Below are positions 9,243 through 32,829 of a stretch of 64,000 nt of DNA, one piece after another; the first letter of the stretch is position 1, and each line of letters opens with the position of its first letter. The translations under genes were made by a program, and so were the position numbers. The stretch is taken from assembly GCA_043719805.1 (NCBI GenBank), contig JAYSTI010000001.1:80230-144229 (forward strand). The letters run 5' to 3'. Under the pieces are notes generated by a model. The model saw only the letters and a list, made by a program, of their open reading frames with translations. It was not told where the DNA came from and did no database searches. Source of the stretch: Candidatus Lloydbacteria bacterium (GTDB taxonomy: Bacteria > Patescibacteriota > Minisyncoccia > Phycocordibacterales > UBA6899).

Positions 9243-9314
9243 TGCGACCTTGACTTCTTGTGAATTTGTGATACACTGCGGACAGGCAGATTCGCCCTTA
9301 CTGGAGTTCTTCAA

Positions 9315-18246: not shown

Positions 18247-18649
18247 ACAATAGAACTTTCATATTTGGCGAATTTCTTCGTTGCCAGCGGTCGTGAGTCT
18301 CCTAAACGTAATAACACATACGTCTCGGAGACATCACTTCCTTGCCGCCTCAAACTTCATCCAACTCTGAAAGTTCTATTATTTTAGCACGTTATTTCGG
18401 ATTGCGGCCTAAAAACTGGGGAAAAGAGCAAATAGGAAAGCCGTCTTGGGAGACGGCTTCTCGTGACAGCCTTCTGGGCTTTTTGGACGGATTCACTCCA
18501 CGATACACGCGGCCCGGTGCTCGTGGTCCCCGTTTCATTTCAGTTCATGTTCTCATTGATTGGCCAACTCCTTTGTAGGAATGTTCCGAAGAACGGTGTT
18601 TGACAATGATAGCACGATATCTATCTTCTGTCAAGCATTTATCGGAATG

Positions 18650-25835: not shown

Positions 25836-25862
25836 AAAAAGCGGACGCATGTCCGTTTTTTT
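25836..25862. terminator. bidirectional intrinsic terminator
   Basis: cggac-gcat-gtccg flanked by A5/T8. Confidence 0.55.
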
Positions 25863-26463
25863 ACAAAAAATTATTTGTAATCCGCGTGCAAAAACTTCGA
25901 CGATGAATCGGGGACATTCCGTATTTTTTTATCGCCGCCATGTGTAATGCGGTGCCGTAGCCGACATGTCGGTCGAAGCCGTACGCGGAATATTTTTTAT
26001 GCATGCGCAACATGAGTCGGTCGCGCTCAACCTTCGCAACTACTGAAGCGATGGCGATAATGGTTTCCTTTGCATCTCCGCGGATGATGGTTGCTTGATT
26101 CATGAATTCCGCAGGAGCACGCAATCCACCATCGAGGAGAACGCGGACGTTCTTCGGGTTTGGCGAAAGTTTTTTGAGACCACATAAGGCTGCCTTATGT
26201 ATAGCGGGGTTGACTCCCCTCCTGTCTATCATCTGCGCGGAAACGAAGGACACGGCAAATTGAATTCCGCTTTTCGGCGCACAAATTTTTTTGTACCATT
26301 CTTCACGTTGAATGCGAGACAGTTGTTTTGATTCTTTTATTTTTTTAAATTTACGAATTGTGGCACGAGTCGCCATCGCAACGCCAACGGCCACAGGACC
26401 CGCAAGCGGCCCACGCCCCACTTCGTCCACACCTATGATAAATTTTACTTTGGCATTCTTCAC
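25861..26463 (-). CDS. rnhB: ribonuclease HII
   Basis: GVDEVGRGPLAGPVAVGV and the downstream catalytic region typical of RNase HII. Confidence 0.9.
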   Translation of the reverse strand: MKNAKVKFIIGVDEVGRGPLAGPVAVGVAMATRATIRKFKKIKESKQLSRIQREEWYKKICAPKSGIQFAVSFVSAQMIDRRGVNPAIHKAALCGLKKLSPNPKNVRVLLDGGLRAPAEFMNQATIIRGDAKETIIAIASVVAKVERDRLMLRMHKKYSAYGFDRHVGYGTALHMAAIKKYGMSPIHRRSFCTRITNNFL

Positions 26464-26512
26464 GTATTTCAGTATACAACCTAAAACATGAGGATATGTT
26501 CGGCAAAGAAAG

Positions 26513-26558
26513 AAAAAGAGCGACCTTGCGGTCGCTCATTGCACAAAATGTGCGAAAC
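26513..26558 (-). terminator. conserved terminator module, copy 1 (gagcgacc-gcaa-ggtcgctc plus T-run)
   Basis: Starts at the flotillin stop codon; about 95% identical to the module at 28083..28126, including the flanking AAGTAAGTTCGCACA..TTTGTGCAATG. Confidence 0.6.
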
Positions 26559-27953
26559 TTACTTCAGACTTGCCGATTCCTCACCGGCAGCACCATCCAC
26601 GGGCTGCACTGCTTCTTTGACGGCCGGAGCCACGAGCGTCATGCCCATCTTGCCCTTCAGTGCACCCAGGATCGCTTCACCTTGAGGGGTGTTGCTGAGC
26701 GCCTCGAGCATGCCGCCCAGAGCCAGTCCGCCCTTCGGGGAGAACAGGTCCATGGCGCTCTTCACGCCGGTGCTGATGTCGCCCGCATTGGCGATGACCT
26801 TGATCTCTGCGGCCTTCAGCGCTTCCGCTTGTGCGGTGCCCACAACCTGATTCGCTTCGACAGTGCGGAGCGTCACGAGGTACTGCTGGTAACCGGCATT
26901 CTCGCCGATTTCCTTCGCGAGGGTGATCTGCGCCGTGACCGGAGCCATGAGCAGCGCCGTTTCCGCCGCAGCCTTTGCTTCGCCGGCAACACGAACGCCT
27001 TCCGAATGACGCTGCGTCGCTGCAAGTGCACCTTCGGCCTCAAGTGTGACGGTCTGCTTGGTCTGCTCGGCAGCAACCACGGCGGCTTCACGCGTGATCT
27101 CGGCCTGACGCACCTGCTCGACTTTCTTCACGTCCATGGCACGCTCCATGGTCACTTTTTCCTCGGCCTTCACTTCCTGATGGGCCTTCTGGAGCGCGAT
27201 ACCGACGGCCTTGTCTTTGTCCGCTGTGCGCTGACCAACGGCCTGCTGGGCTTCTTGCTCGCGAATGTCGACGGTCTGCTTGGCGTTGATTTCAGCAGTC
27301 TCGGCAGCCTGATTATTCTGCGCAACGGCTACGCGACTTTCCATCGCAATGTGCGACGTCTTCTTCGCCATGATGTTGGTAATGACCTTGCTGTCATGGC
27401 CGTCGCGAATGTCCATGAGTTCCATCGTCTTCACAGACTCGACGCCCCATTGCTTGAGTTGCTCTGCGACTTCCGCAGTGAACGCCTGTCCAAACTTGGC
27501 GCGCTCGAGCATGATGACGTCGATGACGTCGGACGCGAGCACCTTTCGTACGGCACCCTTCGTGATTAGGTCAAGCTGCTCTTTCAGCCCCTCGACCGTT
27601 GCAACACGCTGCGCCGCAAGCGAAGTCTCGGCAATGCGATAGAACGCAGTGACGTCGACCTTGAATGGGACGCGGTCCTTGTCGTATGCCTCATAGCCTT
27701 CCAGCTTGAGGTTGAAGTTGCTCACGGGCAGCACGATGCGCGTGACGCCGATGATCGGCACCCAGCTCGGCCAGTTGTAATAGACGTTGCCGCCTTCCTG
27801 TCCGGTACCGTACGATGTCGTCTTCTTCTTGGACTGCACGATGTGCACCATGTTGGTCTCGACGACCTTACGGAAGATGAGAGGGATGAATATGCCGACA
27901 ACAAGAAGGACGATGAGTCCGACGACCCCACCAAGCAAGGAGATGATTTCCAT
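26559..27953 (-). CDS. flotillin / SPFH (band 7) domain protein
   Basis: N-terminal TM helix, SPFH domain, long Ala/Glu/Gln-rich coiled-coil typical of FloT/YqiK; ATG at 27953 with AAGGAAA ribosome-binding site. Confidence 0.85.
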   Translation of the reverse strand: MEIISLLGGVVGLIVLLVVGIFIPLIFRKVVETNMVHIVQSKKKTTSYGTGQEGGNVYYNWPSWVPIIGVTRIVLPVSNFNLKLEGYEAYDKDRVPFKVDVTAFYRIAETSLAAQRVATVEGLKEQLDLITKGAVRKVLASDVIDVIMLERAKFGQAFTAEVAEQLKQWGVESVKTMELMDIRDGHDSKVITNIMAKKTSHIAMESRVAVAQNNQAAETAEINAKQTVDIREQEAQQAVGQRTADKDKAVGIALQKAHQEVKAEEKVTMERAMDVKKVEQVRQAEITREAAVVAAEQTKQTVTLEAEGALAATQRHSEGVRVAGEAKAAAETALLMAPVTAQITLAKEIGENAGYQQYLVTLRTVEANQVVGTAQAEALKAAEIKVIANAGDISTGVKSAMDLFSPKGGLALGGMLEALSNTPQGEAILGALKGKMGMTLVAPAVKEAVQPVDGAAGEESASLK

Positions 27954-28065
27954 TCCAGATTTCCTTTTCAATTCAGAGAACACACGCAATTACCCTTGCG
28001 TTATGGGTCGCCACTTTCGTAGCATTTTCCGAGTGCACACTACCATCATCGACAATGAGTGTCAA
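27954..28065 (-). promoter_or_regulatory. promoter TTGACA-N17-TAGTGT plus conserved about 77-nt structured 5' leader (copy 1)
   Basis: -35 at 28060..28065, -10 at 28037..28042; leader CGGAAAAUGCUACGAAAGUGGCGACCCAUAACGCAAGGGUAAUUGCGU... contains a GNRA-capped hairpin and an ACGCAA/UUGCGU hairpin and is about 85% identical to 29161..29236. Confidence 0.5.
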
Positions 28066-28082
28066 TAAAAAATGGCAAAGAA

Positions 28083-28126
28083 AAAAGAGCGACCTTGCGG
28101 TCGCTCATTGCACAAACTGTGCGAAC
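28083..28126 (-). terminator. conserved terminator module, copy 2
   Basis: Identical hairpin gagcgaccgcaaggtcgctc plus T6, directly after the lipoprotein stop codon. Confidence 0.6.
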
Positions 28127-28732
28127 TTACTTCTTGGCCAGCGGATCTGCCGGCGCCGTCTTGGCAGGAGCAGAACGATCCGGCTCGTTCACGGCACCTT
28201 TCTGGGGCCACGGGAAAGCGCTGACCTTCTCCTCGGCATACACCGCTTCCGCCTTGTTGTTGATCGGACTGATGCAAATGATGCCCGTACCTTCGGCAGT
28301 CGACGGCGGGAAGACCCCGTTGGGTTCGGCTTGGGGCAAACGTGTCACTCCCCAAGTCCAGCCATGTTCCGAGTCAGCGCCATAGCGAGGGTCCCGCACG
28401 CGGTAACGCTGCATGGATTCGCCGGCGGAGTACTGCGTGCCCCCCGGAATCGGATAGCCGATGGAATCGCAGAAATAAATCCATTGACCCTGCATGTTCT
28501 TCGTGTAGGTGTAGGTCAGGAGATTCGCCTTGTCGCGCTGCTCGTACCAGTACCGGACACCACGCATGTCGCGGTAGTTGACGATGTCCGGCATGCCGAC
28601 CTGTTGCGCGCCCTCCAGGTTGATCGCCGCCTGCTGGTCACGCTGTGCATCGTTGGCAGTGGCCGGCGGAGGCTTTTGGCAGCCCGCGAGTGCGAGGCCG
28701 ACGAACAAGAGGGCAATCAGTTGGGTTTTCAT
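28127..28732 (-). CDS. lipoprotein (201 aa), function unknown
   Basis: Signal peptide with lipobox LALAGC; Pro/Gly-rich mature region. Confidence 0.65.
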   Translation of the reverse strand: MKTQLIALLFVGLALAGCQKPPPATANDAQRDQQAAINLEGAQQVGMPDIVNYRDMRGVRYWYEQRDKANLLTYTYTKNMQGQWIYFCDSIGYPIPGGTQYSAGESMQRYRVRDPRYGADSEHGWTWGVTRLPQAEPNGVFPPSTAEGTGIICISPINNKAEAVYAEEKVSAFPWPQKGAVNEPDRSAPAKTAPADPLAKK

Positions 28733-28770
28733 CTTTGTTTCCTTCAGGTGATGGTGGGATGGAAGCGGGC

Positions 28771-29160
28771 TTACTGGCCAGCGCCGGGCGAGCAGTCGAA
28801 GGCTTGGCCTTGATGCTGACGGAGACAGACCATGAAAGCACGGAGGTCGCGCGGCAGACTCTCGTCCGGGTACTCGCCGTATTGCTGGATGATCACGGAA
28901 CCGAGGCCGGCACGACGGTCGGGCGGGGCGGTGATGTAGTTCATCTGCGCATCGCGGATGTTCTTGATCGTGCCCGCGTTGTACGACCTCGATTGCTCGA
29001 AGGTCTCGCGACGGACCTGCTCTTCTTGAGGTGCGAACACCTTTTCCTTGGCCAGGCTGTTGGCACGGGAGAACCAGCCGAGGCTCGTCGAGACGACGAC
29101 GAGGGCGAGGAGGGCAGCGAGAGCGGCGGCGATGGCGGCGAGAACGTGGGAAGTTTTCAT
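28771..29160 (-). CDS. membrane-anchored hypothetical protein (129 aa)
   Basis: N-terminal Ala/Leu-rich TM helix; first gene downstream of leader copy 2. Confidence 0.6.
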   Translation of the reverse strand: MKTSHVLAAIAAALAALLALVVVSTSLGWFSRANSLAKEKVFAPQEEQVRRETFEQSRSYNAGTIKNIRDAQMNYITAPPDRRAGLGSVIIQQYGEYPDESLPRDLRAFMVCLRQHQGQAFDCSPGAGQ

Positions 29161-29272
29161 TGCACTATTTCCTTCAAATCAGAGAACGAACGCAATATCC
29201 CTTGCGTTATGGGGGTCTACTTTCGTAGCTTTTTCCGTTTACATAGTAGCATGATTATAGAATAAAGTCAAG
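29161..29272 (-). promoter_or_regulatory. promoter TTGACT-N17-TACTAT plus conserved about 76-nt structured 5' leader (copy 2)
   Basis: -35 at 29267..29272, -10 at 29243..29248; leader shares the two hairpins and GGAAAU Shine-Dalgarno with copy 1. Confidence 0.5.
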
Positions 29273-29478
29273 CAAAGATAGGCCCAGGTATTCCCCGCCG
29301 GTAAATGCGACGACAACTGCGAACGAAATTTTTTGTGGACTATTCCGTCATTTGAAGAAAGGCGTGGGCGTACTTCAAGGACGTAAATCCGAGCTACGCG
29401 CCTTCACAAAATTAATGACGTGATGCGAAGACCATTGTCCACAGAAAGGGGGCGTGGGAACGATGCTATACTCACCGC

Positions 29479-32400
29479 ATGAGTGCCTCCAAAGAAGAAA
29501 AAAAGGTTGAGTTCATCCACCTGCACACCCACACGCACTTCTCTCTTTTGGACGGGCTTTCAAAAGTGGACAAGGTCGTCGCACGCGCGAAAGAGCTCGG
29601 CATGAGTGCCATTGCCATGACCGACCACGGTGCGATGTACGGCGCGATAGAATTTTACAAAGCATGCAAAGCGGAGGGCATCAAGCCCATCATCGGTGTC
29701 GAAGCATACATCGCAAACCGAACGCGTCTCGACAAGGAATCCGGCATCGACAACAAGCGATTCCACCTCACCCTGCTCGCGAAAAACGCCGGCGGATATC
29801 GCAACCTTGTGCGCCTTACGACTGCCGCCCATATCGAGGGATACTACTATAAACCCCGTATGGACAAAGATATTCTGCGGATGTACTCGGAGGGCATTAT
29901 TGCGCTTTCGGGCTGCCCTGCGGGTGAGCTCGGCCGCGCGATACTACGCAGCAACGACCTCGAACGCGCAGAAGCAATCATCCACGAACATCAGGATATT
30001 TTCGGCAAAGAAAATTACTTTATTGAAATAATGCATCATCCGGACGTCGAAGATTTCGAGAGGTGGAGAAGCACGCTCGTCATGCTTTCGCGCAAGCTCG
30101 ACGTGCCACTCGTCGCAACGCAAGATTCACATTACATCAATCCCGACGACTCACGCGCACACAAAACACTCGTCGCCATCTCGACAAATACCGACGTGAA
30201 CGACACGGGAATTTTTTCCGGCGAGGGTGCATACCATTTCATCTCGACCGAAGAAGCACTAGAAAATTTCAAAGACATTCCGGAGGCCGTTGAAAATACC
30301 ATGAAAGTCGCGGCGATGTGCGACATCGCGCTCGAACTCGGAAAGTGGGTCTTCCCCCATGTTGACTTTGGAAAGGGCAATGACGCAAACAAAGAACTGC
30401 GACGTCTCGCAGAGGGCGGGATTGCATTTCGCGAAATGACCGAGACCCCCATCTTGCGCGAGCGCCTCGAATACGAGCTTGAAGTCATCAAAAACAAGGG
30501 TTACTCACCGTACTTTTTGGTGGTTGCAGACCTATTGCGATTTGCGCGTGAAGTCGGCATTTATACAACGGTGCGTGGTTCGGCCGCCGGCTCTCTTATC
30601 ACCTATCTCACGGGTATCACCAACGTCGACCCGATTGAATTCCAGCTTCCGTTCGAACGATTCTTGAATCCGTTTCGCCCCTCTCCTCCCGATATCGATA
30701 TGGACTTCGCCGATAATCGCCGCGAAGAGGTGCTCGAATACGCGAAGCGCAAATACGGCGCAGACAAAGTTGCTCAGATAGGTACGTTCGGGACGATGAT
30801 GGCACGCGGTGCAGTGCGTGATGTGGCTCGTGCACTCGGAAAACCCTACGACGTCGGCGACCGCATTTCAAAGATGATACCCCTCGGCCTTCAGGGATTC
30901 CCGATGACCCTCGATCATGCGATGGAGATAGAACCCGACCTCAAAAAACTCTACAGCACTGACGCAGACACGCGTGAGATCATCGACCTCGCGAAAAAAC
31001 TCGAAGGTTGTGTGCGCCACGTCTCGGTACACGCGGCGGGTGTCGTCATCTCCCCGACCCCGCTCATCGACTTTGTGCCGACACAATACGACCCCAAGGG
31101 CGGTAAGGTCATCACGCAGTACGACATGTATTCCGTCGAAGAGGCCGGCCTCCTCAAATTTGACTTTCTCGGCATTCGCAATCTCGCAATCCTTGGCGAG
31201 GCGGTACGCCTCGTGAAACTCCACCACGGCATTGATGTCAATATCGAAAAGATTCCGTTCGACGACAAAAAAACATTCCAAATGCTCGCGCGCGGAGAGA
31301 CGATCGGCCTCTTTCAATTGAATGGTGGCGGAATGACCAAGGCACTCATGGAACTCAAGCCAAATCGCATCCACGACATCAACGCCATGGTCGCGCTCTA
31401 TCGCCCCGGCCCGATGCAGACTATCGAAGAATACGTCGCACGCAAGCACGGGAGAAGCGAGGTCGTGTACTACCACCCAAAAATGAAGAAGTTTCTAGAC
31501 AAGACGTATGGTCTGCTTGTGTATCAAGACGACCTTTTGTATACCGCCATCGAGCTTGCCGGCTACGATTGGAATGAAGTCGACAAATTTCGCAAAGCGG
31601 TCGGAAAGAAAATTCCCGCCGAGATGGCAAAGCAGCACAAAATATTCGTTGACGGCTGCCTCACCCATAGCGGCATCAAAGCTGCGGACGCTGAAAAGAT
31701 ATGGACATTGTTTGAGCCGTTCCAGGGATACGGATTCAACAAGGCGCACGCCGCCTGCTACGGCCGCGTCGCATACCAGACTGCGTACATGAAGTCGTGT
31801 TATCCGAGCGAGTACATGACCGCCGTCCTTACTGCGGAAGAAGGCGACACGGAAAAAATATCCGAAATCATCACCGAGTGTAAGCGCATGGCGATTCCCG
31901 TCCTCCCGCCGGACATCAACATGAGTCACAATCACTTCACCGTCATCAAGGCCCATAATACCGGGGCCAAAGGTTCAGATTCGGATGAGATGCGAGATGC
32001 GCTGAGTCACGACTCCACTAAGGCGTATGAGCGATACGACGCAGGGGTTCATGATCCCAGCGCAGCGAAGCAGGTCGCCGAATCTGGGCCTTTGGAAAAG
32101 GATCAGATTCGGTTTGGGCTCTTTACGATAAAAAATCTCGGCGAGAATATTGCTGGAGCAATTATCACCGAGCGCGAGTTAAACGGGCCATACAAATCCT
32201 TCAGTGAATTTTTAGAGCGCGTCACGCACAAGGACCTCAACAAAAAATCTCTGGAATCCCTCATCCGCGCGGGCGCATTCGATACGCTCGGTGAAGAGCG
32301 TGGCGCACTTCTCCACAATGTCGACGACGCACTCGAATATCACAAAGAGCATGCGAAGACATTACTCAGCAATCAAGTCTCACTCTTTTCGGTTGTTACG

Positions 32401-32829
32401 AGTGGTAAGGCACTCCCCCAACTGCGACTACGCCCAGCACCTGAAATATTAATGGACCAAAAACTTGCGTGGGAAAAGGAATTATTGGGACTCTATGTAT
32501 CGGGACATCCACTGGACAAACACCGTGAGAAGATTGAGCGTGGCGGAACAAATATCAAAGACGCCAGCGAACACACACATGACGGCATGACGCTTGTCGT
32601 CGCAGGAATCATCGAGGAACACAAGATTGTCATCACCAAAAAGAATGAGCACATGGCATTCCTCAAGATTGCCGACTTCACCGGCTCCATCGAAGTCGTT
32701 GTCTTCCCGCGCACAATGGCCGAATGCAAAGACCTCATCGGACCCGACAAATGCGTCGCCATCAAAGGTCGCTTCTCAAGGCGTAATGATGCCCCGTCAC
32801 TCATTGCGGAAAAAGTGAAGGCACTCTGA
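29479..32829 (+). CDS. dnaE: DNA polymerase III alpha subunit
   Basis: PHP domain (HLHTHTHFSLLDG), polymerase core and OB-fold; 1116 aa; contains an about 50-aa polar insertion between HFTVI and IRFGL. Confidence 0.95.
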   Translation: MSASKEEKKVEFIHLHTHTHFSLLDGLSKVDKVVARAKELGMSAIAMTDHGAMYGAIEFYKACKAEGIKPIIGVEAYIANRTRLDKESGIDNKRFHLTLLAKNAGGYRNLVRLTTAAHIEGYYYKPRMDKDILRMYSEGIIALSGCPAGELGRAILRSNDLERAEAIIHEHQDIFGKENYFIEIMHHPDVEDFERWRSTLVMLSRKLDVPLVATQDSHYINPDDSRAHKTLVAISTNTDVNDTGIFSGEGAYHFISTEEALENFKDIPEAVENTMKVAAMCDIALELGKWVFPHVDFGKGNDANKELRRLAEGGIAFREMTETPILRERLEYELEVIKNKGYSPYFLVVADLLRFAREVGIYTTVRGSAAGSLITYLTGITNVDPIEFQLPFERFLNPFRPSPPDIDMDFADNRREEVLEYAKRKYGADKVAQIGTFGTMMARGAVRDVARALGKPYDVGDRISKMIPLGLQGFPMTLDHAMEIEPDLKKLYSTDADTREIIDLAKKLEGCVRHVSVHAAGVVISPTPLIDFVPTQYDPKGGKVITQYDMYSVEEAGLLKFDFLGIRNLAILGEAVRLVKLHHGIDVNIEKIPFDDKKTFQMLARGETIGLFQLNGGGMTKALMELKPNRIHDINAMVALYRPGPMQTIEEYVARKHGRSEVVYYHPKMKKFLDKTYGLLVYQDDLLYTAIELAGYDWNEVDKFRKAVGKKIPAEMAKQHKIFVDGCLTHSGIKAADAEKIWTLFEPFQGYGFNKAHAACYGRVAYQTAYMKSCYPSEYMTAVLTAEEGDTEKISEIITECKRMAIPVLPPDINMSHNHFTVIKAHNTGAKGSDSDEMRDALSHDSTKAYERYDAGVHDPSAAKQVAESGPLEKDQIRFGLFTIKNLGENIAGAIITERELNGPYKSFSEFLERVTHKDLNKKSLESLIRAGAFDTLGEERGALLHNVDDALEYHKEHAKTLLSNQVSLFSVVTSGKALPQLRLRPAPEILMDQKLAWEKELLGLYVSGHPLDKHREKIERGGTNIKDASEHTHDGMTLVVAGIIEEHKIVITKKNEHMAFLKIADFTGSIEVVVFPRTMAECKDLIGPDKCVAIKGRFSRRNDAPSLIAEKVKAL

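Follow-up and report, generated by a model that had tools for sequence, protein, structure and literature searches.

In Bacillus subtilis, the flotillin and NfeD operons yuaF-floT and yqeZ-floA are transcribed from promoters of the extracytoplasmic function (ECF) sigma factor sigma-W. In candidate phyla radiation (CPR) bacteria, very few regulators are recognisable, and the control of the envelope is almost uncharted. Here, a leader RNA with a conserved domain of about 60 nt is described, which precedes a flotillin gene and, directly beside it, a membrane protein–lipoprotein gene pair in a 64-kb stretch of the genome of a Candidatus Lloydbacteria bacterium (contig JAYSTI010000001.1, positions 80,230 to 144,229; hereafter the window, to which coordinates refer unless another contig is named). 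Such a locus would resemble the sigma-W regulon of B. subtilis in that flotillin, NfeD, and small membrane proteins are co-controlled, but its promoters are generic ones of the sigma70 type, and the element in common is situated in the transcribed leader. The leader is probably a previously undescribed, narrowly distributed, structured cis-regulatory RNA motif of the 5' untranslated region (UTR).

Conservation and distribution of the leader

On the minus strand between 26300 and 29500, two back-to-back units are situated between dnaE and rnhB. Unit 1 contains the flotillin gene, and unit 2 contains genes for a protein with a transmembrane (TM) anchor and a lipoprotein. The leader of unit 1 spans 27954..28031 (78 nt) and that of unit 2 spans 29161..29237 (77 nt), both on the minus strand; they score 103 and 103.5 bits, respectively, with a covariance model. 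Within the core, extending from CGGA to GUUCUCUGA, the two leaders are identical at 50/59 positions (85%), and an alignment including the promoters gives 76%, above the limit of 70% set beforehand. The initial annotation, made from the window alone, had claimed a leader identity of approximately 85% and two adjacent units with a common leader and 3' module; both claims agree with the present comparison, the coordinates being right to within 1–2 nt. The leader pattern occurs twice in the 64 kb, with 0 occurrences expected by chance. A third copy is not detected in the window by the covariance model, nor is any further significant match found there to GUUCUCUGA, to the small hairpin of the 3' module, or to the ACCCCCAUAACG linker. 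Likewise, no antisense or small RNA (sRNA) partner was found in the window.

Beyond the window, the leader was recovered in related contigs, which provide seven further copies and bring the set to nine distinct sequences with covariance scores of 74–104 bits. It is located upstream of flotillin in the contigs L005, L006, L007, and L133, upstream of an operon of NfeD and a FloT-type flotillin in L010, and upstream of a different small TM protein and lipoprotein pair in L011. L005 carries both units in the same order as the window, with a flotillin that is 91% identical. Four operon types are found behind the leader: flotillin, NfeD-flotillin, and two kinds of TM protein and lipoprotein pair. 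The leader's association with flotillin and NfeD, seen here in CPR bacteria, is new; literature searches returned no description of an RNA motif preceding either gene.

The conservation of the leader exceeds that of its surroundings. At four-fold degenerate sites, the flotillin gene of the window is 48% identical to that of L006 and 41% identical to that of L007, which corresponds to saturation, and the 45–60 nt upstream, containing the promoter, are 49–59% identical in the same comparisons. By contrast, the identity of the leader core is 79–80% in these comparisons and 75–97% over all pairs, and 30 of the 34 columns proposed to be paired are invariant. Furthermore, the differences among the copies, paralogous or orthologous, are limited to loops and linkers, and units 1 and 2 have promoter spacers of unrelated sequence. 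Since the core is conserved where neutral sites are saturated, the spacers show no relationship, and paralogues resemble one another about as closely as orthologues do, these comparisons indicate purifying selection on the transcribed leader and not recent duplication. The leader thus combines two properties of a regulatory leader, namely 5'-UTR conservation beyond neutral divergence (75–97% vs. 41–48%) and recurrence before coherent genes.

The leader is absent from flotillin orthologues at 61–65% identity in L134, L136, and L137, from lipoprotein homologues at 46–68% identity in L139, L140, and L144, and from 27 flotillin loci on viral contigs (IMG/VR). Because more distant homologues of the same genes occur without it, the leader appears to mark a lineage-specific regulon and is best read as part of the regulatory repertoire of the lineage, not tied to a gene family. 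Its placement outside any named RNA class, already proposed in the initial annotation, is borne out by Rfam 15: the window contains only a tRNA at gathering thresholds, with nothing on the leader, and a search of 26400–29400 at E ≤ 10 returns weak matches to sRNA models (MicX, STnc50, and one P10), none of which falls on either leader. Phage and plasmid collections yield no blastn match to the leader.

Predicted folding of the leader

Two hairpins, P1 (CUAC/GURG) and P2 (ACGCAA/UUGCGU), are well supported; folding predictions return both of them for each window copy and for the consensus. Together with the conserved GUUCUCUGA, they correspond to the elements initially annotated as CUAC-GAAA-GURG, ACGCAA-GGGWWA-UUGCGU, and a conserved segment, all of which are present. 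In unit 1 (minus strand), CUAC (28022–28019) pairs with GUGG (28014–28011) to form P1, which contains a U.G pair; P2 occupies 28001–27984, GUUCUCUGA occupies 27981–27973, and the Shine-Dalgarno sequence (SD) is situated at about 27964–27960. In unit 2 (minus strand), P1 is formed by CUAC (29228–29225) and GUAG (29220–29217), followed by P2 at 29207–29190, GUUCUCUGA at 29187–29179, and the SD AAGGA at about 29174–29170. P1 starts 9–10 nt from the predicted 5' end. Among the copies, the P1 loop is GAAA, GAGA, GCAA, CAAAA, AGGAAU, or UCGCAAG (4–7 nt) on a constant stem, and the P2 loop has 5–6 nt. The unit 1 copies share the U.G pair in P1; U.G and G.U pairs can form on the sense strand only.

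In L006, a change of the linker from CCCCC to CCCCG accompanies a change of the P2 loop from GGG to CGG. The double change is compensatory for an H-type pseudoknot of 3 bp, in which the CCC linker would pair with the GGG of the P2 loop (alignment columns 35–37 with 47–49). This tentative pseudoknot would involve CCC 28007–28005 and GGG 27995–27993 in unit 1, and CCC 29213–29211 and GGG 29201–29199 in unit 2, on the minus strand in both cases. RNAalifold adds a closing helix, P0, in which CGGA pairs with UCUG inside GUUCUCUGA, including a G.U pair; such a modelled helix would, tentatively, explain part of the invariant GUUCUCUGA. Loop variation over constant stems, the G.U pairs, and one compensatory change favour an element acting at the RNA level.

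Several known types of leader element were compared with these folds. An RNA thermometer of the ROSE or fourU type does not fit the leader, as the SD is located outside the conserved hairpins and no consistent SD pairing is predicted. A leader peptide was rejected: only unit 1 contains an in-frame GTG...TGA, and loop indels of −1 and +3 break the frame elsewhere. A CsrA site was likewise rejected, the GGA in the P2 loop not being conserved (GGGUAA, CGGUCU, GGGUU). Inspection for 5'–3' complementarity of the leader to the 3' hairpin reveals nothing convincing.

Wider scans return few loci. A pattern scan of metagenome contigs gives 5 loci only. Viral contigs give 91 pattern matches, all without the upstream half of the leader and therefore attributed to chance. 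In genome contigs, the P2 hairpin pattern has 3 matches, about the chance number, of which one lies inside a coding region and two belong to the same Dehalococcoidales 5' UTR. In the latter, from two metagenome-assembled genomes, a 21-nt hairpin identical to P2 (AUAACGCAAGGGUUAUUGCGU; L002 7229–7249 and L004 6222–6242) is located just upstream of the SD, preceding a short basic open reading frame (ORF) and an ORF resembling a cold-shock-domain protein. These matches were rejected as relatives of the leader, with only the second hairpin in common and a covariance score of 24 bits; since the remainder of the leader is absent, the likeness is probably a coincidence.

Promoters and 3' modules

By sequence match, both units possess a sigma70-type promoter with a TGn extended −10 element and a 17-nt spacer. 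The unit 1 promoter (28037..28065, minus strand) consists of the −35 hexamer TTGACA, a spacer containing TGg, and the −10 hexamer TAGTGT; the unit 2 promoter (29243..29271, minus strand) consists of TTGACT, a spacer containing TGc, and TACTAT. Both had been recognised in the initial annotation, with the boundary of the second at 29272, 1 nt off. The leader sequence CGGAAAA begins 5 nt past the −10 hexamer, at 28031 in unit 1 and at 29237 in unit 2, and the same distance is found in all other copies with upstream sequence, the unit 2 copy of L005 being cut by the contig end. Transcription is predicted to start at this conserved CGGAAAA. The architecture TTGAC-N14-16-TGnTAnnnT occurs 8 times in the window, and the leader follows 2/8. 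The leader is accordingly not a generic companion of such promoters. The notion of the promoter itself as a special feature is not supported. The six further promoters of this form are located at 9250, 35384, 48477, and 53407 on the plus strand and at 18634 and 8613 on the minus strand; judging by their recurrence, the organism may use the extended −10 type as its standard strong promoter.

The 3' modules have in common an exact run of 35 nt including the whole terminator hairpin, and the claim that the same module ends both units is upheld. The unit 1 module (26513..26558, minus strand) contains a small hairpin, GCACA-UUU-UGUGC (26553–26541), a terminator stem (26537–26518), and a T5 run; the unit 2 module (28081..28126, minus strand) contains GCACA-GUU-UGUGC inside 28125–28109, a terminator stem (28106–28087), and a T6 run. 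The 8-bp terminator stem, GAGCGACC/GGUCGCUC, has 6 GC pairs and a GCAA loop, with a predicted energy of −21.5 kcal/mol and z values of −3.9 (unit 1) and −4.3 (unit 2). As expected of an intrinsic terminator, a GC-rich stem-loop followed by a U run is situated 3' of the stop codon, and this pattern is found 2 times in the 64 kb with 0 expected.

Within the window genome and within L005, both units share the terminator stem GAGCGACC...GGUCGCUC, whereas other stems are found in the terminators of the flotillin orthologues of L006, L007, and L133. Because the stem is common within a genome but different among flotillin orthologues, the near-identity of the 3' modules is best attributed to intragenomic copying. 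Meanwhile, the small hairpin GCACA-loop-UGUGC just past the stop codon is kept in all four flotillin lineages, with the loops UUU, GUU, and GCAA; its stem in L007 is GUGCA/UGCAC, and in unit 2 of L005 it is degenerate. In L006 (7313–7486), an ORF of approximately 57 aa, apparently encoding a membrane protein and absent from the window, is located between the flotillin stop codon and the small 3' hairpin.

A Logan contig, L001 (1594 nt), corresponds to window positions 26518–28111; its ends are identical, and the break falls exactly at the 35-nt repeat. A circular cassette, as the identical ends might imply, was rejected, since a break of the de Bruijn graph at the 35-nt exact repeat explains them as an assembly artefact.

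Genes and history of the locus

The flotillin/SPFH protein of unit 1 (464 aa; 26559..27953, minus strand) matches Pfam Band_7 (E 1e-13, 51.9 bits against a cut-off of 23.6) and is only distantly related to FloT (31 bits vs. 700 with the NCBIfam model). Its homologues number 2200, the closest deriving from Parcubacteria named Lloydbacteria, Uhrbacteria, and Yanofskybacteria. In unit 2, the 129-aa protein with an N-terminal TM anchor (28771..29160, minus strand) has no Pfam match, and the 201-aa lipoprotein (28127..28732, minus strand) has an LAGC lipobox and belongs to family phrog_24725 (E 3.5e-19). The predicted structure of the lipoprotein has a mean predicted local distance difference test score (pLDDT) of 61, too poor for a fold search. 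The flanking genes were assigned with Pfam as dnaE (29479–32829, plus strand) and rnhB (25861–26463, minus strand). The three unit genes have a GC content of 0.59–0.63, compared with a mean of 0.51 for window ORFs, and a GC content at third codon positions (GC3) of 0.73, 0.74, and 0.78, compared with 0.556 ± 0.061; the reference set comprises the 43 ORFs of the window with 150 aa or more, of which 2 are spurious and lie antisense in the unit 2 region. The units are thus GC-rich relative to their surroundings by both measures and for all three genes, as had been noted.

The two units have different histories. In the Lloydbacteria assembly GCA_001818945.1 (L006), the gene order is dnaE-flotillin-rnhB, without unit 2, and the proteins are 87% (DnaE), 79% (flotillin), and 68% (RnhB) identical to those of the window. 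Since L006 keeps this order without unit 2, the comparison shows a resident, vertically inherited flotillin and a later insertion of unit 2. The dnaE-proximal intergenic DNA is homologous in the window and L006 up to the first promoter; the insertion of unit 2, together with the second 3' module, promoter, and leader, therefore took place between flotillin and its ancestral promoter region. An earlier suggestion that the two units are paired cassettes acquired together is not supported, in view of the syntenic flotillin of L006, which lacks unit 2 next to it and has a DnaE 87% identical to that of the window. Within the homologous intergenic DNA (window 29380–29460; L006 5540–5600), the conserved blocks TTTCTGTGGACAATG.TCTT.GCATCACGTC.T.AATTTTGTGAAGG and, further on, CAAAAAATTTCG were observed; they have no Rfam match and may represent a dnaE promoter or 5'-UTR element.

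The genes of unit 2 have relatives in phages. Proteins matching the lipoprotein are encoded by Synechococcus phage S-SRM01 and Clostridium phage phi3626 (Gp45); those of Vibrio Thalassavirus phages match a part of it. In S-SRM01 (L147 3681–4893), the gene directly upstream of the lipoprotein homologue encodes a homologue of the 129-aa TM protein (33% identity, E 1e-21); because the homologues are adjacent there, the TM protein and the lipoprotein are regarded as a conserved two-gene module. The next gene past this pair in S-SRM01 is annotated as 'membrane protease subunit' and has no Pfam match. In Vibrio phage Cody, gp162 and gp163, which lie beside the lipoprotein homologue, were rejected as candidates, being neither flotillin nor TM protein homologues.

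Similar pairs occur as islands in other bacterial contigs. The pair in L139 (4502–5615) has GC3 values of 0.72 and 0.66 vs. 0.27–0.30 in host genes, and the pair in L144 (5640–7023) directly follows a tRNA gene as a GC-rich island in an AT-rich CPR contig. What looks like a partial repeat of the 3' end of the tRNA comes after it, an arrangement that suggests site-specific integration. Both pairs have 5' UTRs unrelated to the leader. Unit 2 is accordingly interpreted as a mobile, phage-associated module that was placed under the resident leader in this lineage. In another CPR lineage (L140 4946–5515, L142, and L143), the gene that comes after a lipoprotein homologue (46% identical), on the opposite strand, encodes an ECF-type sigma factor, a neighbour that hints at transcriptional rather than leader-based control in that lineage.

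The flotillin/SPFH subfamily is also found in phages, with members 42–61% identical in 51 phage records and 27 IMG/VR contigs; the phages include Vibrio Thalassavirus and large or jumbo phages of Xanthomonas, Brevundimonas, Ralstonia, and Erwinia. Homologues with approximately 60% identity also occur in Aeromonas and Paracoccaceae.

Possible functions of the leader

The explanation favoured here, with modest confidence, is that the leader is a lineage-specific, cis-acting RNA of Lloydbacteria-like Parcubacteria, read by a trans-acting factor and placed on a membrane-scaffold or envelope regulon. Units 1 and 2 would be independent transcription units with sigma70 (extended −10) promoters, and both mRNAs would start with the same structured domain of approximately 60 nt, followed by an A-rich spacer and the SD. 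The members of the regulon would be flotillin, NfeD-flotillin, and the TM protein and lipoprotein pairs. A trans-acting factor, either a protein or a small ligand, would read the domain and thereby set translation and/or mRNA lifetime; such a factor is inferred because the stems are conserved in sequence beyond the requirements of pairing and several unpaired bases are invariant. The 3' module would consist of a small conserved hairpin and an ordinary intrinsic terminator, copied when the mobile pair was installed.

A more specific version of this explanation, in which the leader represents a new class of ligand- or protein-sensing RNA switch with a three-helix fold, an H-type pseudoknot, and a UUCUCU toggle, is doubtful. 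In such a switch, the UUCUCU tract would pair either with the 5' end, leaving the SD free, or with the SD AAGGAA, masking it. Some predicted folds do contain a weak pairing of the tract with AAGGAA, and a toggle is conceivable since the same tract would also supply the 3' strand of P0.

Several observations weigh against a sensed, RNA-level element. Covariation is thin, with 1 double change among 13 pairs, a result equalled by 62/500 shuffles. P0 is invariant, has only 4 bp, and is poorly predicted, and the leaders fold no more stably than shuffled sequence (z −1.25 and −0.68). In ensembles computed with coding context, the SD is unpaired with a probability of 0.3–0.7 and the folds are heterogeneous; SD sequestration is not consistently predicted, so there is no clear expression platform. 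The nine sequences come from one narrow clade. Furthermore, the leader-linked genes have a GC3 of 0.61–0.78 vs. approximately 0.5 in their neighbours at every locus, including the vertically inherited flotillin, and through codon bias this fits constitutively high expression equally well. The initial proposal of a co-regulated membrane regulon with a shared leader RNA is supported in that the same leader precedes four operon types and is conserved beyond neutral sites. The support from covariation for the hairpins is statistically weak, as 99% of cells are paired in the helix check with only 1 compensatory and 2 one-sided pairs.

The main rival is a constitutive high-expression cassette in which nothing is sensed, the leader serving, through its structured 5' domain and A-rich standby region, only to stabilise the mRNA and enhance translation, and the tandem hairpins protecting the 3' end, so that the shared elements yield abundant membrane-scaffold proteins. 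It is possible, if clearly less probable than a leader read by a trans-acting factor; the predicted ensembles leave the SD largely accessible, and near-consensus extended −10 promoters and strong terminators are what such a cassette would carry. However, a stabiliser needs structure only, yet the stems and the unpaired GUUC, A69, and CAUAA region are invariant where synonymous sites are saturated, and P1, at 9–10 nt from the predicted 5' end, would lie beyond the classical stabiliser range, with only a weak P0 to cap the end. At the DNA level, the inverted repeats CTAC..GTAG and ACGCAA..TTGCGT, at +10 to +48, might bind a repressor that blocks transcription. Roadblock repressors typically sit just downstream of the transcription start, which matches this position, and the half-sites are nearly invariant while their spacers vary in sequence. 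The spacers also vary in length, however, from 4 to 7 nt in repeat 1 and from 5 to 6 nt in repeat 2, unlike a palindrome of fixed spacing; repeat 1 of unit 1, CTAC/GTGG, pairs only as RNA through its U.G pair, the double change in L006 joins a position outside repeat 2 to the spacer of that repeat, and GUUCUCUGA and CGGAAAA are conserved without being palindromic. Variable half-site spacing and the G.U positions thus make an operator improbable.

Even less probable is that the leader is a functionless, moron-like by-product of cassette duplication or co-acquisition, its likeness reflecting recent common ancestry. Each unit does have its own promoter, its own terminator, and a deviating GC content, the TM protein and lipoprotein pair is clearly mobile (GC-rich islands in the AT-rich L139 and L144, adjacent genes in a cyanophage), and the terminator stems are identical within a genome and different between genomes. 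Against this, the leaders are 85% identical next to unrelated promoter spacers, the leader is kept in L006, L007, L133, L010, and L011 at saturated neutral divergence, the flotillin is syntenic and vertically inherited with no phage genes at its flanks, and the leader is missing from mobile copies of the pair elsewhere. Its cross-lineage conservation largely excludes functionless duplication for the leader itself.

If the more specific reading of the leader as a sensing RNA switch is correct, a flotillin/NfeD membrane-scaffold regulon in a genome-reduced CPR bacterium would be controlled at the RNA level, by the first RNA regulator described for bacterial flotillins, providing a handle on the signal behind flotillin expression. 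The shared leader would define a small post-transcriptional regulon in CPR bacteria and tie two uncharacterised, phage-associated membrane proteins functionally to flotillin, and its compactness (approximately 60 nt) makes it a convenient RNA for screening ligands or proteins. Should it act as a stabiliser only, it would still be a natural, portable expression cassette of an uncultured lineage.

Comparison with known systems

Compared with phage morons, units 1 and 2 are similarly self-contained, with their own promoter and terminator and a deviant GC content, and both gene families occur in phages. They differ in location, being chromosomal between dnaE and rnhB with a syntenic flotillin and no phage genes nearby, and a shared leader is not a feature of morons. 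In the case of the 5' stabilisers, such as the Escherichia coli ompA 5' UTR and the B. subtilis aprE and ermC leaders, 5'-UTR hairpins are likewise present on mRNAs of abundant envelope proteins with an accessible ribosome-binding site, and the possible P0 pairing of the 5' end of the leader would similarly block 5'-end-dependent decay. These stabilisers, however, have no cross-operon sequence family, whereas the leader is conserved across four operon types, and its first solid hairpin is 9–10 nt from the predicted 5' end.

The orphan riboswitch candidates of Rfam and its small pseudoknotted 5'-UTR aptamers (for example, preQ1-I/II, fluoride/crcB, and guanidine-III) share with the leader a conserved domain of approximately 60 nt between the promoter and the SD, a hairpin combined with an H-type pseudoknot (tentative here), invariant junction nucleotides, and reuse before related operons. 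Unlike them, the leader has no Rfam match at E ≤ 10, contains neither a terminator nor a robust SD-sequestering helix, has stems conserved in sequence rather than covarying, and is represented by nine copies in a narrow CPR clade. Among the protein-binding leader regulons (CsrA targets, ribosomal-protein leaders, and PyrR), CsrA targets differ in the GGA that CsrA needs, which is not conserved in the P2 loop of the leader. As in these regulons, the same leader is present on several mRNAs, with sequence-specific conservation of both the stems and the single-stranded bases near the SD.

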